Shown here: positions 14,475-48,083 of the stretch, one piece after another
Numbering within the stretch: position 1 is the stretch's first letter
How the letters are laid out: every line of letters starts with the position of its first letter
Virus record (IMG/VR): IMGVR_UViG_3300031420_000490
Source of the DNA: a virus
Reading direction: 5' to 3' (one strand)
DNA length: 64,000 nucleotides
Made by a program: the position numbers and the translations under genes
The notes under the pieces: generated by a model
Database searches by the model: none
What the model was told of the DNA's origin: nothing
What the model saw: only the letters and a program-made list of their open reading frames with translations

Positions 14475-15929
14475 GTGGCCAAAGGACAGATCCATCTCAC
14501 ACCCGATGGACCAGCGCCCTGCTCGGCCGACCCCTCGAAGCCCGGCGCTCGAGGCTGCCCCTACGGAGCCGGAGGTCACTTCGCCACGGAGCAGGAAGCC
14601 GAGAAGGCCTACGCTGAGCTCATGGAGTCCCAGGGCCTCGACGCACTGAGTGCCAGTTCGTCGTCCCTCGGCGGATTGCGCCGGGAGCTGGAGGCATTGA
14701 GAAAAGGTGGCGCTCCGAAGCTCTCTGAGCTCCAGGAGATCGGCGGACGCATCGAGGATGAGATCCTCAGCCGGGCCGGCGTGGAGGTAGATCGGAAGGA
14801 TCTGAGCTCAGAGGAGCTCGCGGCCCTCGCCAGCAGCGCATCGAGCGTGCTCCGGGAGCTCCAGGGTGAGCCCGTAGCCCTCCGCAGTAAGTTTCACGGT
14901 CCCTTCGCCAGGCAGCTCAAGGAAGCCCTGGCTCCAGTTCCCAGCGGTGCTGCCTACCTGGTCTACGGGGATGTCCACACGGAGACGGTGAACGCTCGCA
15001 ACGGATCCCGGGATGGATTCCACATCCAGCAGGCTGCTATCATGGCACCAGCAGCCGTGGAGGCACGAAGCCCGCTGAGAATCGGATCGGAGGCCAGGCG
15101 CGGAGACTTCGTGGTGGACCGATCCATCGCTCTGCGCCGGGAGATCGAGGGCGGGGAGCTCCTGGGCTTCGCCGTGGATCGCATCGAGCGTGGTTCGGGA
15201 GAGCAGCTCCAGGATGGGGACAGCGTGCTCCACGCAATCCGGCAGAACCGGGCCGATGATCGCTTCATCGAGCTCCTCCAGGAGAAGGTCCTGGACACGG
15301 ACGGAGTGATCCTCCCAGGTCAGGCTGAGCGCTTCCGGGAGCTCGCACCTGAGCTCCTGGAGTCCGCAGAGGCTTCGGCAGTTGTCTCCAGCTTCTACGC
15401 CGGGAAGAAGCCCACCGGCGCCATCGCTCGAGGAAAGCGCTACCGGAAGGTGGCCAAGGACTTCGAGCTCCGGGACTCCAGCGGCGAGAGCTACGCCGTG
15501 GGACTCGATCTCTATGAGGTCCAGGAGAAGCGACTGAGCTTCCGAGACCACACCATCGGCACGAAGCGCTACGGAGGCGACGGCAACGCTCAGAACTCGG
15601 TGCTCCTCCATGAGTTCAGCCACGCCATTCAATCAGCTCGACCCGGTGGCATTCCCGGCGAGAGGGAGCTCTTCCAGGAGATCTATCCCCAGGGTGAGCG
15701 CATCAAGGAGGATGGCTACGAGCGCTTCAGCGGCTTCCCCGACGACTACATGGGCGATGTGGGTGGCCGGGAGGTCTTCACCCGGGCAACCGAGGGACTC
15801 TTCTACCCGCAGTACTCAGGCAACGAGTACCTCTACGACGGCTCCGAGCGCAGCCAGGAGGTTCGCCGCTGGGCCCTGGGAACCTGGGCGCTCCTGGGAG
15901 CCGAAGGACTCAAGCTCAGCAAGGGCTGA
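14475..15929 (+). CDS. HCCH N-terminal domain plus C-terminal zincin-like metallopeptidase
   Basis: H-x8-C-x11-C-x6-H at the N-terminus; LLHEFSH...EVF at the C-terminus. Confidence 0.7.
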   Translation: MAKGQIHLTPDGPAPCSADPSKPGARGCPYGAGGHFATEQEAEKAYAELMESQGLDALSASSSSLGGLRRELEALRKGGAPKLSELQEIGGRIEDEILSRAGVEVDRKDLSSEELAALASSASSVLRELQGEPVALRSKFHGPFARQLKEALAPVPSGAAYLVYGDVHTETVNARNGSRDGFHIQQAAIMAPAAVEARSPLRIGSEARRGDFVVDRSIALRREIEGGELLGFAVDRIERGSGEQLQDGDSVLHAIRQNRADDRFIELLQEKVLDTDGVILPGQAERFRELAPELLESAEASAVVSSFYAGKKPTGAIARGKRYRKVAKDFELRDSSGESYAVGLDLYEVQEKRLSFRDHTIGTKRYGGDGNAQNSVLLHEFSHAIQSARPGGIPGERELFQEIYPQGERIKEDGYERFSGFPDDYMGDVGGREVFTRATEGLFYPQYSGNEYLYDGSERSQEVRRWALGTWALLGAEGLKLSKG

Positions 15930-16006
15930 GAGTTGCTAGAGTCGCGATCTCGTGATAGGGTCGGCCTGAAGCCACTGCCCAGATCAAGCCGAAACGAGAC
16001 TCATCC

Positions 16007-16411
16007 ATGGTCGACATCGCACCCGAAGATCACGATCCAGCCAACTGGAAGTCCTGGCTCGAGGACGACAACGGCAACCTCAACGAGGACGAGCTCCCCT
16101 GGTACGGCCGCAGGGACGAGAGTCCGAACTACGGTCCAGATGCTCCTCCGGCTGCTCAGGTCGAGGCAGCTCGACGCTTCGTGAGCCACTGGCTCAACGA
16201 GGACGGTCACGGCTTCGTCATCCCCGGTGGAGAGTGGGGAGTCTCACTGAAGCACTGGCTGCACATCCTGGTTGCTCGCCCCGCCGTAGACGCTCAGCGC
16301 CCGCAGGAGGCAGCTGCAACCCACCGGTCACAGGATGTTGGGACTGAGGTCGCAGAGGGCTTCAGCCGGGCAGACCTGGCTCCTCTGACCACAGATGGAG
16401 AGGCCGACTGA
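16007..16411 (+). CDS. hypothetical protein
   Basis: TTGCTA-17-TAGGGT promoter upstream. Confidence 0.65.
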   Translation: MVDIAPEDHDPANWKSWLEDDNGNLNEDELPWYGRRDESPNYGPDAPPAAQVEAARRFVSHWLNEDGHGFVIPGGEWGVSLKHWLHILVARPAVDAQRPQEAAATHRSQDVGTEVAEGFSRADLAPLTTDGEAD

Positions 16412-16782
16412 TGGAAGAGAGCCAGATCAGCGACGGTGCCAAGAAGCGCTTCGCGGAGATCAAGCCCGAGAACTACATCCGGGAGTACAAGCGCATCGGC
16501 CGGAAGCTCCTGCGCACGCAGTTCGTCTACGCACTGATCATGCTCATGGGCTTCCTGGTGCCCTTCTTCCTGGTCTACATGGTGCAAATCAATCCCTTCT
16601 TCTCCCTGGCCTGGGCTGGATTCATGGGCTATGCCCTGGTGATGGCCTTCAAGCACACCGAGTGGCCCCTGGAGAACCTGGAGGTCCAGAACCTGATCCT
16701 GAAGGCCCGCACCCGGGCGGCGCAGGAGGAGACAGCAGCCCTGGAGGCTGAGATCGAAGCCCGAGAGAAGGCCCAGCGATGA
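16411..16782 (+). CDS. 2-TM membrane protein (paralogue of 16779)
   Basis: S..A.KRF.EI.P..Y.R...KL..., two TM helices. Confidence 0.75.
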   Translation: MEESQISDGAKKRFAEIKPENYIREYKRIGRKLLRTQFVYALIMLMGFLVPFFLVYMVQINPFFSLAWAGFMGYALVMAFKHTEWPLENLEVQNLILKARTRAAQEETAALEAEIEAREKAQR

Positions 16783-17180
16783 GCGACGAGCAAGAACTCG
16801 AGTTCAGCGATGAGGCTCGAAAGCGCTTCCGGGAGATCGATCCAAAGGACTACGATCGGACTCTCAGGAAGCTGAGCTGGAAGGCATCCCGGCTGCAGCT
16901 CGGCTACAGCTTCCTCTTCTTCCTGGTATCCGCAACCCTGATCCTCGCCATGACCATGGCAGCCACGGCTAGCTCCGGATTCACGCTGATCTGGGTCGTC
17001 GTCATAGCCGTCTCCCTATTCCAGGCCTTCAAGCGCATGGATAGCCTAACAGTAGTCGGAGAGGTTCGCCATCTCATCCTTCGAGAGCGACTCAAGAAGA
17101 CTCCAGTGAGCCCGTCTTTGGGTGAAAGCCTCAGCCAGATTCGCAGGAACAAGGAAAGAAGCAAGGACGCCGATGACTGA
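16779..17180 (+). CDS. 2-TM membrane protein (paralogue of 16411)
   Basis: Same shared motifs as 16411. Confidence 0.75.
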   Translation: MSDEQELEFSDEARKRFREIDPKDYDRTLRKLSWKASRLQLGYSFLFFLVSATLILAMTMAATASSGFTLIWVVVIAVSLFQAFKRMDSLTVVGEVRHLILRERLKKTPVSPSLGESLSQIRRNKERSKDADD

Positions 17181-17421
17181 TCCCCAGCAGATCCAGCCCG
17201 CAGCTGATCACAGCCTCCTCCAGGGTGGAGCCATCACGCTGATTGTGGGCTTCTTCGCCACGGTCGCAGGCTCCATCTGGACCATACTCAGCCCCATCGG
17301 TGGAGGCGTGAACTTCGGAGCGGGACTTCTCTACGAGGGTGGCATGCTCGCCGGGCTCGTCGGCTCGGTGCTCACCATCGTGGGGCTCGTCGGCCTTCGC
17401 AGGACCGGCAGGAAGCACTAG
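17173..17421 (+). CDS. small 2-TM membrane protein
   Basis: Hydrophobic helices; overlaps the upstream stop. Confidence 0.65.
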   Translation: MTDPQQIQPAADHSLLQGGAITLIVGFFATVAGSIWTILSPIGGGVNFGAGLLYEGGMLAGLVGSVLTIVGLVGLRRTGRKH

Positions 17422-17470
17422 ATCAGCCGTTGATCTTGGTATTCTAGCCCCGAAAAGAAGGAGACCACCC

Positions 17471-17764
17471 GTGGACGCATCGCAGCCCCTCGAGGACCCC
17501 CGCCCGCTTGTTGAGCAGGTCCGTGCTCGCAACGCCACGCCCTACCGCTGGATGGACATCCTCGTCTGGGAGCAGCCCTGGCTCAAGCTCAAGGGCCACA
17601 CTCAGGAAGAGATCGATGAGGCACTGGAGCTCGCCCGGAAGCTCAATCGTCAGGACATGCTGACGGAGGCCGCTGACTACAAGAAGCACCGGGAGCGCAT
17701 TCGAGCCATCCAGGCGGCAGAGCGCAGCGCTCTGGGAGTTGACCAGAGCCCCACAAGCGCGTAG
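17471..17764 (+). CDS. hypothetical protein
   Basis: AAGGAG RBS, GTG start. Confidence 0.65.
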   Translation: MDASQPLEDPRPLVEQVRARNATPYRWMDILVWEQPWLKLKGHTQEEIDEALELARKLNRQDMLTEAADYKKHRERIRAIQAAERSALGVDQSPTSA

Positions 17765-17832
17765 GATGATGATGCGGGAAAGCTGAAGTCAGCTTTCCCG
17801 TTCCCTAGCTTCCCCGACGACAGGAGCCAGCC

Positions 17833-18198
17833 ATGGCAGAGAACGAAGCACCCAAGGGCCTCGTGATCCTTTTCGATGACGAGCGTGAGTTCGTTCCCGG
17901 CTTTCGGGACGGAGCGGTGATCGTTCGCACGGCGGAAGAGGCCCGGGAGCTCTTCGATGAGCTCAAGGCCAATCCGCAGCCCGTGGCTGAGCTCTGGCTC
18001 GACTATGTGCTCCGCCGAGGTTCCACGGACGACGCCCTGAGCGACCTTCCGGGTCACCTCGTGGAGCGAGTGATCTACTGCTCCAGCTCCAGCAGCGCCT
18101 TCAGCCTCCTCGCCATGATCCTCAAGGAGGATACGGGCTTCTCGGGTGAGATGGAGCATGGCTGGACGGTCTTCCCGAAGGCCTTCAAGAAGCTCTAG
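17833..18198 (+). CDS. cyclic-phosphate-processing receiver-like domain protein
   Basis: LFDDER...VRTAEEA.EL...ELWLD pattern. Confidence 0.6.
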   Translation: MAENEAPKGLVILFDDEREFVPGFRDGAVIVRTAEEARELFDELKANPQPVAELWLDYVLRRGSTDDALSDLPGHLVERVIYCSSSSSAFSLLAMILKEDTGFSGEMEHGWTVFPKAFKKL

Positions 18199-18281
18199 GC
18201 TTCCGACAGCAACAGACAGCAGCTAGACCGGCCAGATCCGGTCCTCTAGCTCCACAGCACACAGACAGAGAGGGGCCTCCC

Positions 18282-18620
18282 ATGGCCACAGAGACAGTGA
18301 TGATCTACGGCTCGAGCGATGACCTCGTAGAGATCGAAGGTAAGATCAAGGGTGCCGACGAGTACTCCTACAACGACGGAACCTGGGAGGGTGTTCTCGA
18401 GGCCCCCAACGGTGAGACTGCTCTGGTCTTCGTGGACTTCCGCAGCAACGGCTTCTGGACTGTGAGCCTCACGCCCTACGAGGAGGGCTACAAGCTCCAT
18501 TGGCCCGTCGACTACGCGGTCATCGACGCCAACTGCCGCTACTCGATCACGGCAACGGTGGAGGTTCCCCAGGGCACCACCTTTAAGTCCCTGTCCAACA
18601 GGGATGAAGACGAGGACTGA
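18282..18620 (+). CDS. hypothetical protein
   Basis: IYG.SDDL.EIEG motif; RBS. Confidence 0.75.
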   Translation: MATETVMIYGSSDDLVEIEGKIKGADEYSYNDGTWEGVLEAPNGETALVFVDFRSNGFWTVSLTPYEEGYKLHWPVDYAVIDANCRYSITATVEVPQGTTFKSLSNRDEDED

Positions 18621-18622
18621 GC

Positions 18623-18805
18623 TTGCTCATCCGGGACCGGGACTATCCGGGCAAGGAAGACGGACTGGAGCCTCCTAAGCACGCGGTAATCTACTACAAC
18701 GGCGTCAGGAAGAGCTTCTGGTATCGAGACGGGGAAGAGGTCTTCATGCCGCCCTACTACGACGAGCCAGATGACGATGAGGAAGAAGACGAGGAACAGC
18801 CATGA
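18623..18805 (+). CDS. small acidic hypothetical protein
   Basis: Operon coupling; TTG start. Confidence 0.5.
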   Translation: MLIRDRDYPGKEDGLEPPKHAVIYYNGVRKSFWYRDGEEVFMPPYYDEPDDDEEEDEEQP

Positions 18806-19278
18806 GCAGCGAGAACATCAGAAGGGTTGCCTCCGTAGAGGTGATCTCAGAGGACGAGCGCCGGGATCTTCCCGGGCTTTCCGAGATCGATCCAGCCTTC
18901 AATCAGATGGACCCCACCTACAATGTTGAGATGGGAAGAAGGCAACCGGAAGAACCCCACGCAACTGTGGATCGCTACGCTCAGGCTGCAAAGCTGACCT
19001 GGAGTGTGGATGAGGGCGTCGGGCTCATTGCTCTTGACGGAACCTACCTGAATCCTGATGATCCCTATGGTCAGCTTTCTCTGGGTGAGCTCTTCGATCT
19101 CGCTCGACGCTATGAGGCCGTCAAGCTCGCAGAGCGCAGAGAGCTATCCCTGGATCCTCTCCCCTGGGTCAATTCCTACGATCTCCTCGAGCGCAGAGAG
19201 CAGGGTGGTTTGAACCGGGACTTCAGTCCACGGCTCGGCTATGCTCAGGATCGCAGTGACTACGGAATCGATGGCTAG
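18802..19278 (+). CDS. hypothetical protein
   Basis: ATGA overlap with the upstream gene. Confidence 0.6.
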   Translation: MSSENIRRVASVEVISEDERRDLPGLSEIDPAFNQMDPTYNVEMGRRQPEEPHATVDRYAQAAKLTWSVDEGVGLIALDGTYLNPDDPYGQLSLGELFDLARRYEAVKLAERRELSLDPLPWVNSYDLLERREQGGLNRDFSPRLGYAQDRSDYGIDG

Positions 19279-19337
19279 CTCACTCTGCCATCGGGAGACG
19301 GTTGCACGGTCCTAGGGATCCGTGTACAGTGATCCCC

Positions 19338-19616
19338 ATGACCAACGCAACTGCCACCGTCCAGGACTCCGTCAACCACATGCGCGATGTGGTGGCCGAC
19401 GAGCTCGTCTTCGCTGCTCGGCGCGCCGAGCTCAAGGGTGTCATCGCTGAGATCGAGGCCTCGGAGCTCGGCGGAGAGTTCATCCCCGGCTCCTTCGAGA
19501 TGGCCCGGGACGGCCTGGGCTTCAACGCCCGAGTTCGCAACGCATTCGGCTACCGCTTCCGTACCTTCAAGCGAGGCGACATCGTCTTCTTCGACCAGCA
19601 CGGTGAGATCATCTGA
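19338..19616 (+). CDS. hypothetical protein, leaderless
   Basis: TTGCAC-17-TACAGT, 7 nt, ATG. Confidence 0.8.
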   Translation: MTNATATVQDSVNHMRDVVADELVFAARRAELKGVIAEIEASELGGEFIPGSFEMARDGLGFNARVRNAFGYRFRTFKRGDIVFFDQHGEII

Positions 19617-19630
19617 GCTCAGCTCCACCG

Positions 19631-19666
19631 GAACAGCCTGCTACCCTTCGGGGTGGTGGGCTGTTC
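19631..19666 (+). terminator. UUCG stem-loop terminator
   Basis: 16-bp stem with TTCG loop. Confidence 0.7.
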
Positions 19667-19719
19667 TGCTTTGGCGCACCCGGTTGCGAGCTCGAGCCTA
19701 TCCATGTAGGGTGGCATCC

Positions 19720-20520: not shown

Positions 20521-20555
20521 CAGGCTGCTGCCAATCTAAGAGAAAGATCAGCTCC

Positions 20556-21275: not shown

Positions 21276-21276
21276 G

Positions 21277-24188: not shown

Positions 24189-24587
24189 ATGGACACCACA
24201 CAGACCAGCAAGCGCCCCGCTCGCTCGATCCACATCTTCTGTGAGATCGACAAGCACGAGTATTGCTCCCGGGACCGGGACCGCGATGGCTTCTGCGAGT
24301 GCAGCTGCCACTTCGACACGAAGATCTCCTACGGTAAGCACCTGGGGGACCTGGCCTACGCCTTCTTCGAGCTCGAGCGCGCGCTCAAGGACACGCCCCT
24401 GAGCCGGGACGAGCGCCAGGAGCGCTACCTCATGCTCCTCAAGGCGGCCGACGGTACCGTAGACTTCGAAGGCCGCAGTGCCGAAGAGGTCCTCGCCGCC
24501 CTGGAGGGCACGCTCCAGCGCAGCCGGGAGGGCTACTGGTCCATGGGTGAGACCCTGGAGGACCTCGGCATGCCCGGCCGCTACTAG
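24189..24587 (+). CDS. Cys/His-rich putative Zn-binding protein, leaderless
   Basis: C...KH..C...CECSCH; TTGACG-17-TAGCAT. Confidence 0.75.
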   Translation: MDTTQTSKRPARSIHIFCEIDKHEYCSRDRDRDGFCECSCHFDTKISYGKHLGDLAYAFFELERALKDTPLSRDERQERYLMLLKAADGTVDFEGRSAEEVLAALEGTLQRSREGYWSMGETLEDLGMPGRY

Positions 24588-27610: not shown

Positions 27611-27612
27611 CC

Positions 27613-36998: not shown

Positions 36999-37240
36999 CT
37001 CGACTTCCGGGGTCGGGCTTTCGTGCTTTCTGCCGGTGTTCCTGGGGCTCTTTCGACAGCCTGAGCGCGCAGCCTAGAGCATCGACTACGGTGTTGCTCT
37101 AGGCTGCCTCGGCCGTCGATCTAGCCACACTTTCCCTCGAAGCGGTGCTTTCACATCACGATGCACCGAATGGCTGAACTGGTCAGAAGTTCACCTTCGG
37201 GGCTGTTAGATAGTTCTCCCAATACGAGGAGATCTACCCC

Positions 37241-37990
37241 ATGGCTCAGAAGCGCTTCCACCTCACTCCCGAGGGACCGATGCCCTGCTCAGTGGATTCG
37301 AGCAATCCTCTCTCCCGGGGATGCTTCTACGGCGGAGATCACTACGACACCCCGACCGCTGCTGAGGCTGCCTTCGCTGAGAAGATGGGTGGCGCTGTTC
37401 CTCCTGCTGAGACGAGGGTCGCCGGCAGTGCGGAGGCATTCAGCACCGAGGAGTTCGAAGCTGCGGCCAGGCACTTCTCATCTGCCAACGATCTTAGCGC
37501 TCCAGAGGCCCGGGCTCTGGCCCAGAAGCTCCGCTACGATCCTGAGCCCTCGGGCGAGGAAGCGATGTTCAGGGGAATGACCGGCTACGGTGGAATCTCG
37601 GGAGTCTCCTGGGAGGAGCTGCAGGAAGGGTCTCGGCTCCCCATGAAGCCCCGGTCCTGGACCAGCGACGAGCGAGTAGCCGACGAGTTCTCCTGGGACT
37701 CCAGTGCGGACGAGGATGATCCCTCCATCAAGAGCGTTCTCGTGGTTGCCGAGAGCGGCATCGAGGGAGTCTGGATCCACGAGCACTCCGAGTTCGACTG
37801 GCAGGCTGAGATGGTGTCCACATCTGGAGTCTTCGTCGTGGACAGCATCGAGTCCCGGGACGGCGGAGATGCCTCCCCGGAGGACTCCGAGTCCATCCTG
37901 ATCTCTGGCCATTGGGAGACCACAAGGCTCGACGACGAGGGCTGGCGGCTAGCCATCACGCCCTTCAGCGTAGACTTCCAGGAAGACTGA
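37241..37990 (+). CDS. HCCH N-terminal domain plus R-S-E class ADP-ribosyltransferase-like domain
   Basis: FRG, SWTS and QAE motifs. Confidence 0.7.
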   Translation: MAQKRFHLTPEGPMPCSVDSSNPLSRGCFYGGDHYDTPTAAEAAFAEKMGGAVPPAETRVAGSAEAFSTEEFEAAARHFSSANDLSAPEARALAQKLRYDPEPSGEEAMFRGMTGYGGISGVSWEELQEGSRLPMKPRSWTSDERVADEFSWDSSADEDDPSIKSVLVVAESGIEGVWIHEHSEFDWQAEMVSTSGVFVVDSIESRDGGDASPEDSESILISGHWETTRLDDEGWRLAITPFSVDFQED

Positions 37991-38265: not shown

Positions 38266-38802
38266 ATGCAGAGATACCACATTTCAGAAGACGGCCAGCC
38301 CCGTCCCTGCGACGCTGAATCCGCAGCAAGCTGCAGGCTCGGCGAGGGCACAAGCCACATCGAGTCGGACTCTCCAGCCGAGATCAGCGCCTTCGCTGAG
38401 TCCGTGAACGCAGAGCGCTTCGGTGCGGGTCACCTCTCGGGCGCATCGAAGCCTGCCAACCAGGGTAGCCCAGAGGCCAAGGCAGAGCTCGAAGAGCTTC
38501 TCAGAGATGAGGATGGGCTCGACGGAGCTCTCGACCACATCAGCGACAACATCCTCGGAGATGACGATGGCGAGGTCAAGAGCTTCCTCGCCAACTCTCG
38601 CTACAGCTATGGTTCGGTAAGGAATGCGGGCGGCGAGCGGATTGTCACCATCACCGCCGGAGAGCACGGAGGCTTCGCGGATAAGAAGAGCTACCGCGCG
38701 GCAGCCGAGAGGGCAGGCCAGAAGGTCTCTGAGTCCCTGAGCAGCTTCTTCGGCCAGAAGACCACAGTGAGCTTCGCAGCAGACGAGCTCAGTGAGGACT
38801 GA
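38266..38802 (+). CDS. HCCH N-terminal domain plus unknown domain
   Basis: MQRYHIS...C...C...H; AGAGGG RBS. Confidence 0.7.
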   Translation: MQRYHISEDGQPRPCDAESAASCRLGEGTSHIESDSPAEISAFAESVNAERFGAGHLSGASKPANQGSPEAKAELEELLRDEDGLDGALDHISDNILGDDDGEVKSFLANSRYSYGSVRNAGGERIVTITAGEHGGFADKKSYRAAAERAGQKVSESLSSFFGQKTTVSFAADELSED

Positions 38803-39367: not shown

Positions 39368-39494
39368 TGCATTTTTGAAGAAATGAGCGCAAAGAAACGC
39401 CGCAAATGCGGTTCTAGATTTGACTTTCGTTAGGAAGTTCGATAATAGTGGTGCTATCCACAACGCACATGCACACCGAACAGGGAAAGTCAAT

Positions 39495-40721
39495 ATGGAA
39501 ACCGCAAAGAAGAGGTTCAGGCCCGCAGCCCTGAGCGCAGCAACAGCTGTTGCTCTGGTGGCAAGCCTTCTCTCCATCGCTCCCGCAGGCGCTGCAGTTG
39601 CAGCAGGGGATCCCTCCCAGCCCTGTGCCGCTCCTATCACGCTCTCCAACGAGGAGCAGCAGGCTCTCAACGAGCGTGCCTACAACTATGACAATGAGGC
39701 ACTGAGCTCTGAGCTCCTCTGCTTCAGCACGGCCGGAAGCGACCCCCGACCCGGCGGCGTCCTCAGAGTCGCTGTCAAGCCCGTCTACGCGGGCACTCAG
39801 ATCTCCTATCCCGCGATCAGCTGGGACCATGCCAGCGGCTATACGCTCTTCGGAGCAACATCGGCTGCCGATGGCAACGGTGGATGGGATGCCACCCTGA
39901 AGCTCTCCGAGGGCGAGAGCGGCAAGAGCATCCACGCGATGGTCTCGGAAGTTCATGCCTCCCTGCCGATCCACTACGAGCTCGCCGTTCCCCCAGTGCT
40001 CGATGAGGAGTGCATGGCCGATGAGACGGTCGAGGACAAGAGCTACTGCGTCGTCGAGCCCGAGAGCATCGAGGCCATGGACAACACGCTCCAGGTCTGG
40101 GACAGCGGCTTCAGAGGCGCTGACCAGAATGTGGGCTATGTGCCAGCAGCCCTGGGCGCTGTCTCCATCAGCGGAGAGGCTGTGGTCACGGGCACACTGA
40201 GCTCCAAGATTGCAGCTGGCACCAAGGCCCAAACGGTGTCCTACCAGTGGCTCCGCAACGGCACTCCCATCTCCAAGGCAACCGGCAAGCAGTATAAGCT
40301 GGTTGAGGCTGACCGGAACAGAACCGTGAGCCTTCGGGTCACCGCCTCCAACCCGGGTCAGCCTGCAGTGGTGAAGACCAGCAACGGAATCTCCAAGATC
40401 CTCGGCAAGCTCGTAGCGCCGAACCCCCGGGTTTCCCTGGTGAAGAACCGCATCGACTGCCCTGCCCACAACTGCACCGCCAAGCTCCAGAGCAAGGTCA
40501 ACGCCAACAATGGAGCTCGCTACGACTACCAGTGGTACCGCAATGGTAAGGCAATCAAGGGAGCCAACAAGAGTAGCTACCAGGTGAAGTACAAGTACTC
40601 CAAGAAGGCCAAGTACAATGTGGTCTACACCCTGAAGGTCACTGTCTCCAAGGCTGGCTACAAGACCGAGCGCCAGGTCAGCACGAGCACCTCAAATCCC
40701 TGGGTAAAGCTCCCGGTCTGA
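39495..40721 (+). CDS. secreted surface protein with two C-terminal Ig-like repeats
   Basis: Signal peptide; YQW.RNG..I..A....Y repeated twice. Confidence 0.8.
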   Translation: METAKKRFRPAALSAATAVALVASLLSIAPAGAAVAAGDPSQPCAAPITLSNEEQQALNERAYNYDNEALSSELLCFSTAGSDPRPGGVLRVAVKPVYAGTQISYPAISWDHASGYTLFGATSAADGNGGWDATLKLSEGESGKSIHAMVSEVHASLPIHYELAVPPVLDEECMADETVEDKSYCVVEPESIEAMDNTLQVWDSGFRGADQNVGYVPAALGAVSISGEAVVTGTLSSKIAAGTKAQTVSYQWLRNGTPISKATGKQYKLVEADRNRTVSLRVTASNPGQPAVVKTSNGISKILGKLVAPNPRVSLVKNRIDCPAHNCTAKLQSKVNANNGARYDYQWYRNGKAIKGANKSSYQVKYKYSKKAKYNVVYTLKVTVSKAGYKTERQVSTSTSNPWVKLPV

Positions 40722-41097: not shown

Positions 41098-41163
41098 CAT
41101 CGACTGCGACAGGGCTATCCAAGACCACCACCGAGAGCCAACGAAATCACCGAAGGATCTACC

Positions 41164-41469
41164 ATGGCAAAGAGCAAGGTCAGCCGCATCAAGAGCTTCT
41201 CCAACATCGACGAGCTCTTCGGTCGCATGTACGAGCAGGGGTACTTCATCAATGAGCGCCACCGGGACGAGGAGCTCGAGCGCGTCAAGGGGCCGACGCC
41301 CACCCACAGCGCCAACGAGTACTGGTACTCCAACGGAGCCGACGAGCTCAAGATCTTCAAGAAGATGTTTGGAGCCTTCGAGCTCTGCAACTTCCGAGGG
41401 ATCATCAGCCCGAAGCTCGAGGAGCTCTTCGAGCTCGCCGAGATTCCAAAAATCGGCGCTCGGCAGTAG
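41164..41469 (+). CDS. hypothetical protein
   Basis: AAGGA RBS. Confidence 0.7.
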   Translation: MAKSKVSRIKSFSNIDELFGRMYEQGYFINERHRDEELERVKGPTPTHSANEYWYSNGADELKIFKKMFGAFELCNFRGIISPKLEELFELAEIPKIGARQ

Positions 41470-41552
41470 GCTCAGCACCGGTTCTCCGAGTAGTATCGAT
41501 GTTCAAAATTTTAGCATTTGACATTCAGAACATCATCACATAGGATGTAAAT

Positions 41553-41855
41553 ATGAACACGCCGCTTCGCTCTCAGATCCTCCGCGACCAGCTCAGCCAG
41601 GCTCGCGCCTACCTCACCAACGCCGCAGGCACGGGTGATCTCGCCCTGGCTAAGTTCGCCCTGGGGTTCCTCACCGGAGCCGCCACGGCGGCTGCGCCCG
41701 TGGATGAGCACTACAACCTCTACGCCATGGGCCAGGACGGACTCCGCATGGAGTCCATCGAGCGCGTCATCGATGTGGCCGATGCGCTGACCCGGCGAAG
41801 CTACAGCTACGCCGAGCGCCTTGAGCAGATCGAGAGGGAGGCCCGCCGTGGTTAA
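41553..41855 (+). CDS. hypothetical protein, leaderless
   Basis: TTGACA-17-TAGGAT, 6 nt, ATG. Confidence 0.8.
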   Translation: MNTPLRSQILRDQLSQARAYLTNAAGTGDLALAKFALGFLTGAATAAAPVDEHYNLYAMGQDGLRMESIERVIDVADALTRRSYSYAERLEQIEREARRG

Positions 41856-42063
41856 GCGCTTCACTATCTCAGAGACCGAGGGTCGGAAGCGATCCTTCTC
41901 CTATCTCGTGGATGAGGATTTCCCCCTGGGATCCTGGGGTCCCAGCGAGCAGCCAGCCGATGCTGTCATCGGAGAGGTCGAATCCTTGAGCCAGAGCGAC
42001 AACTGCCCCTTCTTCGCCTTCGATCCCGCCGGCGAGATCATTGTCACAGTCTCGGAGGTCTAA
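41848..42063 (+). CDS. small hypothetical protein
   Basis: GGGAGG RBS, GTG start. Confidence 0.55.
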   Translation: MVKRFTISETEGRKRSFSYLVDEDFPLGSWGPSEQPADAVIGEVESLSQSDNCPFFAFDPAGEIIVTVSEV

Positions 42064-42067
42064 AAAT

Positions 42068-42724
42068 ATGGCATGGATCGACCAGAGACCCGAGGGTGGC
42101 TTCCGGGAGATGCTCCTCTTGGACATCATCCGGGACTACAGGCCCGTCTACCCCGAGGGCGCAACCTGGGAAGAGACCGCCACCATGCTCTACGAGGAGC
42201 AGCCCGAGCACATGGCTGCCCTGAAGGCTTCCCTGGAGCGCAGCGGCTGGCGGGATCCGATCCGGCTGTCGAGCGAGGAGGACATCGCCTCAGACGACGG
42301 CGTGGCCTTCGTCCTCGACGGCACCCACCGGGTCAGCCTCGCCATGCGAGAGGGTGTGATCTCCCTGCCGGTGGTCACCAGCGACGAGCTCCCCGAGTGG
42401 AATGGGTCACCCTCCAGCCTCACGGATCTTCTCATCGAGCATATCTCAGGGCCGCCTCTCAGCGAGGATGAGGACTTCGAAGTCTTCGAGCTCTTCGTCT
42501 CCCTGGAGCTCAATGCCGACATCTGGCTCAACTCTGACATCGGCTCTGGCCGCAGGGGAAGCTGGAGCTTCTACTACGACGAGCTCCAGGATGGTGTTCA
42601 CCACAAGCTCCTCGAGCGTGTGGCGCTGAAGCGACTTCGGAAGCACTTCCCGGGCCGGGACTTTCGGGTGACCGTGAGCCTCTTCGTGGACGAGGACGAG
42701 GAAGACTCCAGCCCCGAGGGCTAG
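42068..42724 (+). CDS. ParB/Srx N-terminal-like domain protein
   Basis: GW.DPI.L...VLDGTHR...LPV; no obvious HTH. Confidence 0.7.
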   Translation: MAWIDQRPEGGFREMLLLDIIRDYRPVYPEGATWEETATMLYEEQPEHMAALKASLERSGWRDPIRLSSEEDIASDDGVAFVLDGTHRVSLAMREGVISLPVVTSDELPEWNGSPSSLTDLLIEHISGPPLSEDEDFEVFELFVSLELNADIWLNSDIGSGRRGSWSFYYDELQDGVHHKLLERVALKRLRKHFPGRDFRVTVSLFVDEDEEDSSPEG

Positions 42725-42777
42725 CGGAGCGGCAGGACGCCTAGAGCCTACAGCCCCGGAGGGGTGATAGTAGCCCC

Positions 42778-43332
42778 ATGGACAGCACTGTTGAAAAGCG
42801 CTACCTCGAGCTCATGCGAGGATTCACGGCCGAAGAGACAGGGCGACTTCCCCTGGAGTACAGCCTCTATGCTCGCAACCTCGAAGCTCTCGTGCAGAGC
42901 TTCCTAGAGGGTGGTCCCCGATTCCACATGCCAGATCTCACCGTGCTCAACGGGCTCGCCGGAGAGCTGCGCTCGAGCATGAACCGGCAGCTCTTCCTCG
43001 CGGGACCCTGGAGGCCGCCACTGGTGCTCCTCCCCCGGGATCGCAGGCGCATTCGAGCGGCTCGAGCTGCAGGGCTCGTCGAGGCAACGGAGGTGAGCGC
43101 GGCGATCCATCGAAGGATCCTCCAGGAGTACTTCTTCCTCACCAACCTCCTTGAGCTCATGCTCCTCGTGCAGCGGGAGGTGGCCACAGCCCTCGGTGGA
43201 GCCCTCGATGAGGCCCAGGTGGCTGTCTATGGGACAGCGACGGCGAAGCTCGTGGAGGTCTTCCAGAAGACCGACGAGAGCTACGAGCAGACTCAGCTCG
43301 CCGTGGCCGAACAGGCCGTCATCGGAGTCTAG
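42778..43332 (+). CDS. helical family protein (paralogue of 43737 and 45307)
   Basis: YLEL...F......LPL.Y.LY...L..L; EY.FL..L.EL. Confidence 0.75.
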   Translation: MDSTVEKRYLELMRGFTAEETGRLPLEYSLYARNLEALVQSFLEGGPRFHMPDLTVLNGLAGELRSSMNRQLFLAGPWRPPLVLLPRDRRRIRAARAAGLVEATEVSAAIHRRILQEYFFLTNLLELMLLVQREVATALGGALDEAQVAVYGTATAKLVEVFQKTDESYEQTQLAVAEQAVIGV

Positions 43333-43458
43333 CTCGGAGCCTAGGGGCTTGAGCTCCTCTCCGGCACCGTTGACAGGCTGAGAGCACCGTGTAGTGTGAT
43401 GTCCATAGATCTCACCTGGAAATCCCAGAGCACTGAGACCCGTTAGGAAGCATCCACC

Positions 43459-43647
43459 ATGGCAGCAACCAAGCAGCAGAAGATCGAGGCGCTGAGCAAC
43501 TTCCTCGAGTACGAGGCGGCCGGACAGGTCCGGGGCCACAGCGCCCTGGATGGGATCGGCTGCCCGGATCACGACGCGGCCTTCCGGGCCAAGGCCGAAG
43601 AGCTCCTGAAGCTCGTCGAGGACGAGAACTACGGCTACGCTGAGTGA
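43459..43647 (+). CDS. small hypothetical protein
   Basis: TTGACA-16-TAGTGT promoter; AGGA RBS. Confidence 0.7.
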   Translation: MAATKQQKIEALSNFLEYEAAGQVRGHSALDGIGCPDHDAAFRAKAEELLKLVEDENYGYAE

Positions 43648-43677
43648 GCTCCAACCACTGAGCGGCCATCGCTCTTC

Positions 43678-43719
43678 GCAGGGGCCTGGGATGGCAGAGG
43701 CGCCATCCCAGGCCCCTGC
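43678..43719 (+). terminator. stem-loop terminator
   Basis: Perfect 18-bp inverted repeat. Confidence 0.7.
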
Positions 43720-43736
43720 TGCGTGATAGTGGATCC

Positions 43737-44195
43737 ATGAACCCAGCAGCGGAGCAGAGTTTTCGAGAGCTCATGGGGCGATTCTCCGAATCGGACCTCG
43801 AGGAGCTTCCCCTGGCCTACAGCCTCTACCGGGATGACCTCCCGGCGCTCGTAGAGCTCCTCCATGAGCAGAACCTGGCCATGCCCCTGGAGCGCCTCGA
43901 CATCCTCAAGGTCCTTCTCTACGAGGCCAAGAAGAACCAGAGCGACCGGCTCGAGGCCTCTTTCCACGGGGACGACGAGAAGCTCGCCGAGCTGGAGCTC
44001 TACAATCGGGCCATCGGCGAGATGGCGCTGAAGGAGTACTTCTTCTCCCTGAGCTATCTGGAGCTCGGCCATCTCCTTCAGCGCACGCAGTTCGAGCTCG
44101 AGGGCATCGAGGTTCCCGAGGAGATCCTGGAGCTCCAGGCTTCCGTCCGCGGATCCCTGGTGAATGCCTTCCGGCTCATCGAGGAGCTTCAGTAG
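43737..44195 (+). CDS. helical family protein (paralogue of 42778)
   Basis: Shared family motifs; GATAGT, 6 nt, ATG. Confidence 0.75.
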   Translation: MNPAAEQSFRELMGRFSESDLEELPLAYSLYRDDLPALVELLHEQNLAMPLERLDILKVLLYEAKKNQSDRLEASFHGDDEKLAELELYNRAIGEMALKEYFFSLSYLELGHLLQRTQFELEGIEVPEEILELQASVRGSLVNAFRLIEELQ

Positions 44196-44273
44196 GCTCA
44201 GTTCGAGTCCGATCTACGCGCTCTCCTCCGGAAACAGGTTGCGGAATCTGCCTCCATGGTGTAGGTTGTCCCC

Positions 44274-44636
44274 ATGGCCAACGAGACCGACCCGACCACT
44301 GCTCCCGACTCGAGCTCGCAGAAGCTCTGGGAGATCCTGGTGCCCACCGTCCGTAACCCCAATGATGAGGGCGAAGTGAGCCCCTATCGGACGCGCTACC
44401 ACCGGGTCTGGGATCAGAAGGTCAAGGCCATCGCCGGCGGGCTCACCGTGCTCACGCCGGTCCGGGGTACCTGGGTGTCGGAGGACGACGAGACCTTCCA
44501 CGAGCGCATGATTCCCGTGCGGATCATGTGTACCGAGGCCGAGATCCTCGAGATCGCCCACATGACCAAGAAGTACTACGACCAGCTCGCCGTGATGATC
44601 TACATGATCTCCTCGGATGTCCGCATCATCGGCTGA
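44274..44636 (+). CDS. conserved hypothetical protein, leaderless
   Basis: TTGCGG-17-TAGGTT, 6 nt, ATG; WEILVPT...GGLT...G.W. Confidence 0.8.
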   Translation: MANETDPTTAPDSSSQKLWEILVPTVRNPNDEGEVSPYRTRYHRVWDQKVKAIAGGLTVLTPVRGTWVSEDDETFHERMIPVRIMCTEAEILEIAHMTKKYYDQLAVMIYMISSDVRIIG

Positions 44637-44701
44637 GATCGACAGCACCACCATCCTTCGGGCCGTAGCTGCCCGGCCAACGACCGGAGAACGATCTACC
44701 C

Positions 44702-45283
44702 ATGAACCCGACCATCGACCACAGCCTGACGCTTAGAAAGCCTCTCAGCGCTGAGAAGCTCCCGAAGCCCAAGCGTTCTGCGGAGTTCCGGAAGCAGCTC
44801 TGGCTCTCCCCCATCGTCTTCGGAATCTCAGTGGCTGCAGCCTTCCTCTGGGAGCTCCTGGGGCTCCCCAAGTTCGGCCCCGAGGGCAACGAGCATCCCT
44901 GGATCTTCCCGCTCTACATCCTCGGCATCTTCTTCTCGGTGCAGAATGTGTTCTCCGCCTTCCGGGAGGAGTACCCTCGCCGCATGAGGCAGTGGAACCG
45001 GGAGCGCCAGGAAGCCTTCGAGCTCGAGGCCTTTCCCTTCCTGGAGGCAGAGCTGAAGGCAGTCGACCAGCGCTACGGCTACAGCATTCCCCTGGATCTA
45101 CCTCCCCGGGACTGGACGGTGGCACTCATGCTCGAGGATCCGGAGAACGGAGCGGGCTTCGGAGCACGCCACGAGGACAGCGACAAGTTCAGCCACTTCA
45201 AATTCACCCTGGAGAACGGCGGCCGGGAGGTGCGTTTCCGGGCTGAGATCCCCGGCGAGCTCGCGGCGGTTGACAACAGCTGA
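44702..45283 (+). CDS. 2-TM membrane protein
   Basis: Two hydrophobic helices; GGAGA RBS. Confidence 0.7.
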   Translation: MNPTIDHSLTLRKPLSAEKLPKPKRSAEFRKQLWLSPIVFGISVAAAFLWELLGLPKFGPEGNEHPWIFPLYILGIFFSVQNVFSAFREEYPRRMRQWNRERQEAFELEAFPFLEAELKAVDQRYGYSIPLDLPPRDWTVALMLEDPENGAGFGARHEDSDKFSHFKFTLENGGREVRFRAEIPGELAAVDNS

Positions 45284-45306
45284 GTTCAGGGTGTAGCATC
45301 GGTCCC

Positions 45307-45957
45307 ATGGACACCACACCTCAGCAGAAGTACCTCGAGCTCAAGGCCCGCTTCTCCGTCGATCAGTGGGAGCGACTCCCCCTGGAGCTTCAGCTCTACG
45401 GAGACAGCCTCGACAGCATCCTTCGCTACTTCGTGGGAAAGGCTAAGCTTCCAGTCCTGGACACCCGGATCTTCTCCGGCCTTTCCAAGGAACTCCAGTC
45501 GGCGGTGGAAACCGAAAGCAAGATCGCCAGCGAGATCGTCAGCGAACCGCTCACTGCTCGAGGATGGAGACTCTCCGAAGTCTTCAGCCGACCGAAGCGC
45601 CGGAGGGAGCTGCAGAAGAAGATGGAGCTCCACGCTGCCGCCCAGGCCCGCCGGGAGGCCGCATTCAGCGCTGTCATCGGAGAGTACGCATTCCTCGGCA
45701 ACCTCAAGGAACTCACTGAGCTCATCGACCGGGAGCTCATGGGGTTTGCCCTGACCCACGAGGAACTCTTCGATGGAGACCGCTCCGAGCGGCTCAGGAA
45801 CATCGAGCTCCGCTCCATCTCCAACCTCGCTGGCAATCGATCCATGGCCAGTGGGCTCTTCTCGGTTGTGCAGCACCTAGAGCGCGCCGTGGGGACCGTA
45901 GAGATGAGGTCCAGCCTCTCCGACACCCACCTCAGCATCCTCCAGAGGTGGAGCTGA
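45307..45957 (+). CDS. helical family protein (paralogue of 42778), leaderless MDTT start
   Basis: TTGACA-18-TAGCAT, 7 nt, ATG. Confidence 0.75.
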   Translation: MDTTPQQKYLELKARFSVDQWERLPLELQLYGDSLDSILRYFVGKAKLPVLDTRIFSGLSKELQSAVETESKIASEIVSEPLTARGWRLSEVFSRPKRRRELQKKMELHAAAQARREAAFSAVIGEYAFLGNLKELTELIDRELMGFALTHEELFDGDRSERLRNIELRSISNLAGNRSMASGLFSVVQHLERAVGTVEMRSSLSDTHLSILQRWS

Positions 45958-46001
45958 GTCCATCTCGTTCAGCATCCACTTCTACTCACAGAAAGAACAC
46001 C

Positions 46002-46322
46002 ATGAACTCGCAGCAGGACAGCTCTGCTCTCACCGACGAACACGCTCAGTCGGTGCTCATCGAGGCAGAGGAACATCTCTGGTCGCTCATCGAGGGTCGG
46101 AACATGGATGACTTCCCGCGGATCTGGATCGCCTTCACCAGCCTGCGGGCAGTTCGGATGCTCTCCAAGAGCTCCAACGGAATCCCTGGCTATCGGGGGC
46201 TCGGACTCCGAGAAGCCCTGGAGCTCGCCACGGCCATCAACGAGCACAAGCCCCAGAGCGACCGGGATCTCACCATCCACAGCTACAAGCCCATCGCTGC
46301 CGGCATCGCTGTCGGTGGCTAA
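46002..46322 (+). CDS. hypothetical protein
   Basis: AGAAAG RBS. Confidence 0.6.
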   Translation: MNSQQDSSALTDEHAQSVLIEAEEHLWSLIEGRNMDDFPRIWIAFTSLRAVRMLSKSSNGIPGYRGLGLREALELATAINEHKPQSDRDLTIHSYKPIAAGIAVGG

Positions 46323-46343
46323 TCACAGGAAGAAGAGAGAACC

Positions 46344-46745
46344 ATGGGAATCAGGGATCTGATCTACTTCGAGGTCACAGCCTTTCACCTTGCGCTCCTC
46401 AAGCGACTGCACTTTCAGGACGGCGAGGGCGTTCCCGAGGTCAGCGCCAAGCGCCCCTACGGAGACAGCGATGTGATCGGGGATCTCCAGGAGATCTACA
46501 GCGAGACCATGGGCTACGAGGTTCTCCGGCTCCGGGACGAGGGCACCATCGTGATCCAGGGCGACCGGGTGATCTCCCGGGGCGACGGCACTGGCCCGAT
46601 CAGCGAGGACATCGAGGCGCAGCTCTGGAAGGCCCATCGGGAGATGAGCACGGTGCTGCAGATCCTGGCCCACAACCTCAACATCCAGGAAGGTACCTAC
46701 AGCCGCGAGCAGTTCGGCGGCAAGTGGACCCTGCGAGAGGACTGA
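46344..46745 (+). CDS. hypothetical protein (paralogue of 50623)
   Basis: FE...FHL.LLK.L.F...PYG...LW..HR...TVL...GKW. Confidence 0.75.
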   Translation: MGIRDLIYFEVTAFHLALLKRLHFQDGEGVPEVSAKRPYGDSDVIGDLQEIYSETMGYEVLRLRDEGTIVIQGDRVISRGDGTGPISEDIEAQLWKAHREMSTVLQILAHNLNIQEGTYSREQFGGKWTLRED

Positions 46746-46827
46746 GCAGTCGAAGCGAAGCGGTGGTTGCACGGTAGGAGCTTCGGATGTATGATGGTCT
46801 CACACCACACCACTTCCGGAGGCACTC

Positions 46828-47037
46828 ATGGCCATCACCACCGCTTCGTTCTTCACCGTCCGCACGATCACCGAGGATGGCGAGTTCTGCTCCCAGACCG
46901 AGCCCATGGACGAGTCCGAGGCTCTGGCGACCTTCGATGACACCGTGGAGAACTCCGGTGAGTCCATCTTCGTACAGATGATCGGCGAGGACGGCGCGGT
47001 GAGCACCGAGGCACGCGGGCAGCTCTCCGAGGACTGA
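46828..47037 (+). CDS. small acidic hypothetical protein
   Basis: TTGCAC-17-TATGAT promoter; GGAGG RBS. Confidence 0.75.
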   Translation: MAITTASFFTVRTITEDGEFCSQTEPMDESEALATFDDTVENSGESIFVQMIGEDGAVSTEARGQLSED

Positions 47038-47059
47038 TCCAGCTTCAACTCGACCTATC

Positions 47060-47103
47060 AGGCGGCCGGGAAGCATCCAGAGCGGGTGCTTTCCCGGCCG
47101 CCT
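47060..47103 (+). terminator. stem-loop terminator
   Basis: AGGCGGCCGGGAAGCA/TGCTTTCCCGGCCGCCT. Confidence 0.65.
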
Positions 47104-47165
47104 TCCTTCGTTAGAACCGGCTGTGAACACCTGATCCATAGACCTGATAGCAGCTGGAGATTCCC

Positions 47166-48083
47166 ATGGCAGAGCGCTTCCACTTCAACCCCGAGACGGG
47201 TCGCACCGGCAAGTGCGGCGCTGATCCCTCCAACCCGCGCTCTCGCGGATGCAAGTTCGGCCAGTCCGACGGTCAGCACGGTGCAACCCGGGAAGAGGCT
47301 CGAGCAAACTACGAACAGCAGATGGAGTCAGAGCTATTCTCCAACGCTCAGAGCAAGAGCACTGGCGAACAGGATTCGAGCTCGGCGAGCTGGCTCCCGC
47401 CCACAGGACCGAGAACACTCTGGTCTGACTACATCAACGACATCACAGACACAGTAGAAGCCCATCTGCCTCTCGATGATCAGTCTCGCAGAAAGATTCG
47501 ATGGAAGGCTAGCCACGATCTACCCGTCACCATGATGGACGGACTGGAGCTCAAGCTCAAGGGTAGAGACCTCTGGCAGAGGGACGCTCTCAAGCTGAAG
47601 ATCGAACCCAACGGTGCCGTCTCAGTCGAGGACCTGAGCGAAGCGGGACGAGTCGATCCCGGGACAATCAAGCGACTCAGCGAGGATCTAGAGAGCTACC
47701 GAGCTCAGTTCTCGGCTGAAATGCAGGAACGAGTCATCCCCAATAGCAAGATGAACAACGAGCGCTTCCTCGCGATCTGGGCTAAGGCGACCCCCTCAAA
47801 GGAAAGCGCTCCGAAGGCAGCCTACAATCGCTACAGCGACAGCGAGCTCCAGAGCGAGGACTGGGGACTCCAGGATGAGACCGGCTACAGCGCTGCTGAG
47901 CTCATGAGGCTTCGCAACATCGGTGAGGCTGAAATCGCAGAGGCTGAGCGAGGCGATGGCAGCATCTGGATGAAGGTTCCCGGTCGCTCCGAGACCACCA
48001 TCTCTGTGGAACTCGCTCGAAAGGAACTGCCCAATGTGAAGCAGCCCAATAGGGGCAGCATCGGTGGAGGCTACTTCTTCTGA
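47166..48083 (+). CDS. HCCH N-terminal domain plus unknown C-terminal domain(s)
   Basis: MAERFHFNPETG...C...C...H; GGAGA RBS. Confidence 0.75.
   Translation: MAERFHFNPETGRTGKCGADPSNPRSRGCKFGQSDGQHGATREEARANYEQQMESELFSNAQSKSTGEQDSSSASWLPPTGPRTLWSDYINDITDTVEAHLPLDDQSRRKIRWKASHDLPVTMMDGLELKLKGRDLWQRDALKLKIEPNGAVSVEDLSEAGRVDPGTIKRLSEDLESYRAQFSAEMQERVIPNSKMNNERFLAIWAKATPSKESAPKAAYNRYSDSELQSEDWGLQDETGYSAAELMRLRNIGEAEIAEAERGDGSIWMKVPGRSETTISVELARKELPNVKQPNRGSIGGGYFF

Follow-up and report, generated by a model that had tools for sequence, protein, structure and literature searches.

Four genes with a common N-terminal module

The 64,000-nt stretch of viral DNA studied here (IMG/VR record IMGVR_UViG_3300031420_000490; the whole stretch is referred to below as the window) contains four dispersed genes whose products begin with the same module of about 55 residues, called HCCH after its spaced His, Cys, Cys, and His residues, and continue into unrelated C-terminal regions. 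Open reading frames (ORFs) on the + strand are present at all four starts (14475, 37241, 38266, and 47166), and a six-frame regular-expression scan recovered, letter for letter, the H..C..C..H strings that an initial annotation, made from the sequence alone, had read in each of them. The genes and their parts are listed below; E-values are those of a 149-member hidden Markov model (HMM) of the module unless another profile is named.

14475..15929, + strand: P0001, HCCH-module protein of 484 aa (E = 3e-21)
14475-14642, + strand: module of P0001 (aa 1-56), after which comes a Ser/Ala-rich linker
15609-15623, + strand: HEFSH motif of P0001 (aa 379-383), in a zincin-like C-terminal region
37241..37990, + strand: P0002, HCCH-module protein of 249 aa (E = 2e-20)
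37241-37402, + strand: module of P0002 (aa 1-54)
37565-37576, 37655-37666, and 37799-37813, + strand: motifs MFRG, SWTS, and WQAEM, respectively, of the ADP-ribosyltransferase domain of P0002 (aa ~90-249)
38266..38802, + strand: P0003, HCCH-module protein of 178 aa (E = 4e-11)
38266-38427, + strand: module of P0003 (aa 1-54), a short-loop variant (E = 6e-18 with the profile of the four window copies)
47166..48083, + strand: P0004, HCCH-module protein of 305 aa (E = 9e-28)
47166-47339, + strand: module of P0004 (aa 1-58), followed by a linker predicted to be disordered (aa 63-82) and a variable middle part
47838-48041, + strand: conserved C-terminal domain of P0004, about 70 aa (aa 225-292), common to 14 clusters

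The four-way alignment of the first ~55 residues contains six invariant positions (H7, C16, C28, G31, H35, and A42, in the numbering of P0001), and the other three modules are 32-50% identical to that of P0001. The 149-member HMM, applied to the six-frame translation of the window, matched exactly these four places and no others (E-values from 9e-28 to 4e-11), which is far above chance; alignment and HMM thus agree with the proposal that one N-terminal module is repeated in four dispersed genes. The mean column identity of the four copies at the DNA level is only ~58% over the aligned stretch, so they are old paralogues, and an origin by recent duplication or as recent repeats is ruled out.

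None of the four genes has a TTGACA promoter within 120 nt upstream, as had been noted initially, whereas eight leaderless-type cassettes with this motif occur on the + strand of the window. A Shine-Dalgarno-like motif precedes each of the four genes at positions -9 to -15. The absence of signal peptides, also noted initially, follows from the position of the module, which begins at residue 1-6 in all four proteins. The gene for P0002 is followed by a 44-aa ORF, which nothing marks as an immunity gene. The sequence TTAGATAG has only two copies in the window (14439-14446 and 37206-37213), each located 35-36 nt upstream of the start of an HCCH gene. It may be a shared promoter element of the genes at 14475 and 37241, both of which lack the TTGACA cassette, although two matches were also reached in 5 of 100 shuffles, so that the observation is weak on its own.

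Conservation and predicted fold of the module

A search of 1.84 billion representative proteins with the profile of the four window copies retrieved 805 representatives, each standing for a cluster, at E ≤ 1e-3, including 27 at E ≤ 1e-10. The 149 members that were aligned all have H7, G12, C16, C28, and H35, and 146 of them retain A42. The spacing of the putative ligands across the family is H-x8-10-C-x5-12-C-x4-11-H, and the module consensus is [FY]-H-[ILF]-x-P-x(1,2)-G-x3-C-x-A-x(3-10)-C-x-[FY]-G-x(3-9)-H-[YF]-x-[TS]-x-E-A-x2-A-[YF]-E-x2-M. Since the four ligands are invariant in all 149 sequences, the binding of zinc that was proposed for the module at the outset is probable.

The AlphaFold 2 model calculated from the alignment is compact, with a predicted local distance difference test (pLDDT) score of 77.7, and comprises two strands (residues 6-9 and 12-15), a loop with the two Cys residues, and a helix (residues 39-61). 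The predicted fold is a β-hairpin connected by a loop to an amphipathic helix, in which the conserved positions A42, Y46, and M50 have the i, i+4, i+8 spacing of a face packing on a hairpin. The module has a mean net charge of -1.1 and an acidic helix, and it lacks a conserved basic surface.

No model for the module was found when the four window proteins were scanned with Pfam, NCBIfam, and PHROGs, and no Pfam or PHROGs model covers it in the 150 best full-length family members. The initial annotation considered that the module could turn out to be a known DNA-binding zinc ribbon, and neither the sequence nor the fold searches returned one; moreover, its ligands are single residues, not the paired CxxC/CxxH knuckles of classical zinc ribbons and fingers. 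A profile search of the Protein Data Bank (PDB) yielded no sequence relative (best E = 1.1). The module model had no Foldseek match in the PDB at E ≤ 0.001 (the rows obtained were chance Kunitz-like ones), and the wide VIA-align search reached a best Z of 3.3. The feature search of the ESM Atlas with the module alone gave no usable match, and the fold search of the same resource retrieved viral hypothetical clusters at template-modeling (TM) scores of 0.67-0.74, which are probably family members. The fold search of AFDB retrieved one uncharacterized family member and otherwise noise.

Two named domains were examined as possible relatives. The WGR domain was rejected, its only match (the WGR domain of PARP3, E = 1.1 over 29 residues) being noise. 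DUF3310 (PF11753) provides the best named fold resemblance (ESM Atlas TM score 0.63, root mean square deviation 2.2 Å, 55 residues); the Atlas row is a mixed bacterial and phage cluster and gives no evidence of homology to the module, and DUF3310 was rejected as a sequence relative, as its HMM gave no match to the four window proteins or to any of 16 module ORFs from two genomes. Term-based text searches of comparative-genomics papers on polyvalent proteins (PMC5512222), viral NAD-ADP-ribose (NAD-ADPr) systems, and jumbo phages found no account of the module. The family is new to the domain libraries searched, and so is its setting, i.e., single-payload paralogues in jumbo phages together with a core membrane protein of actinobacteria, both described below.

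Payloads of the four window proteins

The regions attached to the module (hereafter payloads) of the window proteins differ in how far they can be assigned. The ADP-ribosyltransferase (ART) proposed initially for P0002 is backed by ESM Atlas features, structure, and motif order: residues 90-249 have a feature score of 0.94 to ADPrib_exo_Tox and Mod_ADP_RT clusters, most of them viral, the Atlas model of the same region has a TM score of 0.67 to ADPrib_exo_Tox/ART clusters, and the MFRG, SWTS, and WQAEM motifs are all present in the order expected of an ADP-ribosyltransferase. For P0001, of which a zincin had been suggested, the HEFSH motif is indeed present, whereas the zincin fold of the C-terminal region is a lead only; the nearest named ESM Atlas clusters are ATLF, Peptidase_M90, and the 'peptidase' DUF7211 (0.91-0.93).

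The C-terminal regions of P0003 and P0004 had been left unassigned, and scans with Pfam, NCBIfam, and PHROGs likewise gave them no identity. The acidic C-terminus of P0003 is a singleton in the BLASTP grouping of C-termini, with no relatives detected beyond its own cluster. The C-terminal domain of P0004 (aa 225-292) is modeled at a pLDDT of ~90 and has the consensus ...VKxPSxSExxISxELARRELK..., with no Pfam match and no fold match in the PDB. In the proteins of the P0004 type, which form 14 clusters of HCCH proteins, the last residue is W, F, or Y.

Architecture and payload range across the family

The module begins no later than residue 15 in 151 of the 154 family proteins analyzed; the lengths of the 154 proteins vary between 64 and 598 aa (median 260 aa). 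The exceptions are three proteins that carry it at the C-terminus. One protein (P0072 in our numbering) contains two modules in tandem, and seven members are only 64-81 aa long, including two (64-71 aa) that were confirmed as complete stand-alone ORFs inside contigs. The module is thus an autonomous domain, found N-terminally, C-terminally, in tandem, and alone.

The C-termini of at least 50 aa, available for 141 proteins, fall into 85 BLASTP groups, of which 62 are singletons. The check suggested along with the initial annotation, namely to catalogue C-termini with a profile of the module, was therefore run and yielded many unrelated payloads, in line with its description of a constant module joined to swappable C-termini. 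The Pfam results below refer to the 25 listed of 35 families matched in the 150 best full-length members. The payload families identified are ADPrib_exo_Tox (4 proteins), GmrSD_C (4), ART-PolyVal (2), PolyA_pol/CCA-adding enzyme (2), and LPD1 (2), as well as LRV, HNH_4, AAA, 2H-SAK, Zeta_toxin, pentapeptide repeats, NUDIX, RNase_T, YqaJ, Rv2179c-like, HD_4, and N6_N4_Mtase. Matches to PHROGs extend this list by a tRNA nucleotidyltransferase, exonucleases of the DnaQ-like and RecE-like types, a clamp-loader-like ATPase (AAA+), and one minor head protein.

The substrates of the recognized payload enzymes are NAD, nucleic acids, or nucleotides. The payloads are enriched in conflict-type enzymes, some of which (ART-PolyVal, LPD1, Zeta_toxin, and GmrSD_C) are common to the polyvalent proteins of phages and conjugative elements. 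Many others are ordinary phage nucleic-acid enzymes and not toxins (e.g., the CCA-adding, DnaQ-like, RecE-like, and clamp-loader-like AAA+ proteins). The window proteins and those members that were scanned singly combine the module with at most one recognized payload family. Phage_Mu_F is not among the 25 listed families, and no portal or secretion domain fused to the module was found among the members scanned.

Giant phages that carry the module

A pattern scan of IMG/VR identified a virus genome of 309,534 bp and 35% GC from a sister sample (G404), which contains 11 module ORFs, i.e., ~3% of its ORFs of at least 100 aa. Ten of them are strong matches, and the module is N-terminal in all. G404 is a real jumbo phage, since it encodes, by PHROGs matches, a large terminase (1e-33), RIIA (2e-45), a DNA polymerase (4e-170), and topoisomerase II. 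Two of its module proteins are ART fusions and one is a CCA-adding enzyme, the others having no assignment. The module genes are scattered over the genome (at 0, 26, 93, 164-169, 195-199, 234, 250, and 282 kb), and the terminase lies at 61-64 kb. Searches of G404 for the Pfam hallmarks TerL_ATPase, HK97 capsid, tail sheath, and MuF gave no match, and a search for an S77/T4-type head protease was uninformative, with no match in G404 and none in the control genomes either.

Among the other carriers, a 475-kb contig holds two or three module copies within 6 kb. This contig and an 82-kb member contig are rich in genes with RNA-repair or NAD-related functions (HAD_SAK_2, T4 RNA ligase, Zeta-like kinase, Macro, NAPRTase, and GmrSD_N). 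On the 82-kb contig (L007), a gene at 758-2734 encodes a 658-aa protein with ParB-like and endonuclease VII parts, and adjoining it, around the HCCH gene, are T4 RNA ligase 1, HAD_SAK_2, Zeta-like kinase, and Macro.

When five different modules were compared by tblastn with 50,697 GenBank phages and 72,556 PLSDB plasmids, the only rows obtained were noise (29% identity in a mycobacteriophage nuclease) and none was a true match, and a megablast search of the same two collections with 20 kb of the window gave nothing. The home on actinobacterial plasmids or conjugative elements that was envisaged initially is thus not borne out, as no copy of the module was found in the PLSDB plasmids or GenBank phages. 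For the FHFNP subfamily, no confirmed locus was found in GTDB genomes or IMG/VR.

The window DNA occurs in phyllosphere metagenomes, and the longest contig bearing P0002 is 346 kb long. The window has a GC content of 61.7%, and almost all of its genes are small and located on one strand; they include genes for RNase H, HD, R2K ATP-grasp, an FtsK-like ATPase, DUF3228, RNase T, and a nucleotidyltransferase. Four further window ORFs have homologues in G404, with identities of 25-43% and E-values from 1e-11 to 1e-18:

6820-7701: window ORF with a G404 homologue
41821-42063: window ORF with a G404 homologue
42041-42724: window ORF with a G404 homologue
52132-52461: window ORF with a G404 homologue

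Because these four gene families are common with G404, the element to which the window belongs, a phage-like element of at least 346 kb, is likely a jumbo phage. The same similarities hint that giant elements of the phyllosphere, whether high or low in GC, draw on a common gene pool.

A chromosomal version in Nocardioidaceae

The species genomes of GTDB, scanned with the pattern of one subfamily, contain 13 loci (L009-L021), 12 of which encode a protein of ~171-185 aa in Nocardioidaceae, including the isolate Aeromicrobium panaciterrae JCM 16926 (L018:7983-8498). The layout of this protein comprises the N-terminal HCCH module, a charged linker, two hydrophobic (transmembrane) helices, and a basic tail. 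The gene has fadD (acyl-CoA ligase) upstream and purS downstream in eight loci, in six of which purQ is present as well. The maintenance of the order fadD-X-purS-purQ indicates that the gene is chromosomal and vertically inherited. In the module helix, the cellular version has A-W-K where the phage version has A-Y-E. All 91 homologues of the cellular version are annotated as 'hypothetical protein' and have no Pfam domain.

The thirteenth locus belongs to a metagenome-assembled genome (MAG) labeled Lysobacter sp. (G003), in which five HCCH ORFs are located on small contigs (C2, C33, C89, and C97). The one contig examined (L010) has a GC content of 56%. These ORFs are probably fragments of giant phages mis-binned into a bacterial MAG.

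Possible functions of the module

The reading we favor, which we judge to have an even chance of being right, is that the module acts inside the cell as an adaptor or targeting domain, itself non-catalytic, with a single conserved partner common to all its carriers. A single zinc ion held by the His, Cys, Cys, and His residues would keep the fold together, and the module would bring varied accessory enzymes of the phage (an ADP-ribosyltransferase, a probable zincin, nucleases, and RNA-repair or tRNA enzymes) to a single partner inside the infected cell. This partner would be a conserved cytoplasmic protein or a nucleic-acid-associated hub, to which the Aeromicrobium version would provide a membrane tether. 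An adaptor is favored because the domain is found at either end of proteins, in tandem, alone, and on a membrane anchor, and also because the residues conserved in it are structural ones and module and payload are separated by a linker predicted to be disordered. The C-terminal, tandem, stand-alone, and Aeromicrobium forms, together with the payloads that are not toxins, fit a general binding domain better than a delivery signal of the leader type.

Several points weigh against the adaptor. The partner is putative, and conservation outside the structural core of the module, i.e., on its surface, is weak. A net charge of about -1, which is not basic, provides no support for direct binding of nucleic acids by the module, and zinc binding is a prediction from ligand conservation. 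Most long members have no recognizable domain, so the term 'enzyme' is established for a minority of payloads. The 64-kb window, whose element is a putative phage, contains no structural gene, and a search of IMG/VR found neither P0001 nor the contig of the window. The host is a guess: an actinobacterium was chosen because of the GC content of the window, its TTGACA leaderless-type cassettes, and the matches in Nocardioidaceae genomes. Finally, a phylum-wide sweep of 401 genomes found nothing but missed its positive control too, so that it is uninformative about where the module is absent.

A virion-packaging or ejection tag appears unlikely as an explanation. The module would in this case be recognized in head assembly, much like the capsid-targeting sequence of phage T4 or a MuF fusion, and the attached enzymes would be loaded into the capsid and injected with the DNA, the tag perhaps being cut off. 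The N-terminal location in 151 of the 154 proteins and the 11 copies in a jumbo phage are what such a tag would lead one to expect, whereas the C-terminal and tandem forms, the complete stand-alone forms of 64-71 aa, and the core chromosomal membrane protein of Aeromicrobium misfit a leader-type signal. The conserved A-Y-E of the module helix would fit the S/A/G-x-E cleavage sites of phiKZ-type head proteases. The four window genes lack the TTGACA cassette, so that they may be timed differently. The payloads speak on both sides: ART-PolyVal and LPD1 come from families defined on proteins predicted to be injected, one payload has a minor-head-protein match in PHROGs, and the ART payloads recall Alt of phage T4 (PMC5512222), whereas injected proteins do not typically include a CCA-adding enzyme or exonucleases of the RecE-like or DnaQ-like kind. 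In addition, no MuF was found in G404, where the module genes lie away from the terminase. The initial annotation favored a tag for transfer through the virion or by conjugation, a view that these data do not sustain: no evidence of transfer was obtained, no MuF, portal, or secretion domain accompanies the module, and its genes lie outside recognizable structural blocks.

We also consider it doubtful that the module is a nucleic-acid-binding zinc knuckle that binds DNA, RNA, or tRNA and thereby raises the local substrate for the attached enzymes. Most of the recognizable payloads act on nucleic acids or nucleotides (GmrSD_C, HNH, RNase_T, YqaJ, PolyA_pol/CCA, 2H, NUDIX, Rv2179c-like, and methylase), and the pentapeptide-repeat payload is one that we take to be a DNA mimic. 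The neighborhoods of some members are rich in RNA-repair genes (HAD_SAK_2, T4 RNA ligase, and Macro), and the tandem copy in P0072 is finger-like. The fold bears a weak likeness to sheet-plus-helix DNA binders (AP2/HNH_3/NUMOD4 and CedA, TM scores 0.43-0.53), although no known zinc finger or ribbon was matched in sequence or fold. The negative mean charge, the acidic helix, and the missing conserved basic surface are at odds with this explanation, and a membrane-anchored cellular version would be unusual for such a binder.

The least likely of the readings, and in our estimate a very improbable one, is a regulatory or stability cap exerting zinc- or redox-sensitive control of activity, folding, or turnover (as an autoinhibitory lid or a protease-adaptor degron): a Cys/His site could sense oxidation or zinc, toxic payloads (ART, nucleases, and zeta kinase) have to be held in check until they are used, and the conserved residues are structural and not on the surface, but one lid would need to fit at least 85 unrelated payload folds across a long disordered linker, and the stand-alone and membrane-anchored forms have nothing to regulate in cis.

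To return to the adaptor, its partner, if found, would reveal either a hub targeted by both high-GC and low-GC phages or a route of packaging or localization, and anything fused to the module would become a candidate effector or counter-defense enzyme regardless of its function. It is improbable, in our view, that the module goes further and forms a portable routing signal of giant phages, by which one zinc domain would send a dozen enzymes per genome to one destination (the capsid for co-injection or a phage-built compartment), with the Aeromicrobium protein as a cellular, receptor-type ancestor; if this is true, phages would possess a programmable system of protein targeting that is new. The module groups a part of the giant-phage dark matter, at least 805 clusters, by a common handle, and it merits a profile in Pfam and PHROGs. 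As a small autonomous domain that functions at the N- or C-terminus of proteins, it could also serve as a targeting tag.

Comparison with known systems

The combination of a constant handle with variable effectors is already known from polymorphic toxins, MuF fusions, polyvalent proteins, and effector-associated domains (EADs). Polymorphic toxins resemble the HCCH proteins in having a constant N-terminal module and many unrelated C-termini, some of the toxin type (ART, HNH, and zeta kinase). They differ in that the HCCH module matches no domain for secretion or trafficking in Pfam, NCBIfam, or PHROGs and, beginning at residue 1-6, leaves no room for a signal peptide, and in that polymorphic toxins belong to cellular secretion loci, whereas the HCCH carriers are giant phages with many non-toxin payloads.

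The capsid-targeting sequence (CTS) of phage T4 is an unstructured leader of ~10 residues that is removed by the head protease. The similarity here is an N-terminal element common to several phage proteins, including an ADP-ribosyltransferase (T4 Alt); in contrast to the CTS, the HCCH element is folded, ~55 aa long, and predicted to bind metal, and it is also found C-terminally and in a cellular protein. EADs are helical, and each pairs with a second copy of itself carried by a core NTPase. Like the EADs and other Death-like adaptors (context in PMC8195603), the module is a small domain, putatively non-catalytic, that is attached to many effectors and would recruit them to a common partner, but no core partner with an HCCH copy was seen.

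The overlap with polyvalent proteins concerns the domain set (ART-PolyVal and LPD1, twice each, Zeta_toxin, and N6_N4 methylase, with the zincin-like lead in P0001) and the setting of conflicts among mobile elements; polyvalent proteins, however, contain 2-15 domains per polypeptide (Iyer et al. 2017, PMC5512222), whereas HCCH proteins have a single payload. Unlike the effectors fused to MuF or portal proteins (PMC5512222), HCCH proteins carry neither domain. The family therefore stands outside three known classes, since it has no trafficking domain (polymorphic toxins), a single payload (polyvalent proteins), and no MuF (MuF fusions).

A lineage-specific expansion of a zinc ribbon (ZnR), with ~35 copies and a possible role as a transcription factor, was described in Bacillus phage G (PMC7824862). 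It is likewise a small zinc module multiplied within a jumbo phage, although it is not described as an N-terminal fusion partner (PMC7824862). Phage G, which is included among the 50,697 GenBank phages, has no true match to four different HCCH modules by tblastn.

Other features of the window

No tRNA genes were found in the window. The tetranucleotide ACGT is absent from its 64,000 nt, vs. ~222 occurrences expected from base composition, and is ~3-fold depleted in G404 (315 vs. ~987 expected), which suggests avoidance of an ACGT-specific restriction/modification system.

The gene at 39420-40721 encodes a 433-aa protein with a hydrophobic, signal-peptide-like stretch near the N-terminus. Its Ig-like repeats resemble Hoc-like head-decoration and tail proteins (PHROGs, E = 2e-6) and constitute the sole virion-like hint in the window. 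The 132-aa ORF at 24189-24587 contains a dense Cys/His stretch (H-x2-C-x7-C-x9-C-x-C-x-C-H), and its product is a candidate for another metal-binding protein, unrelated to the HCCH module.

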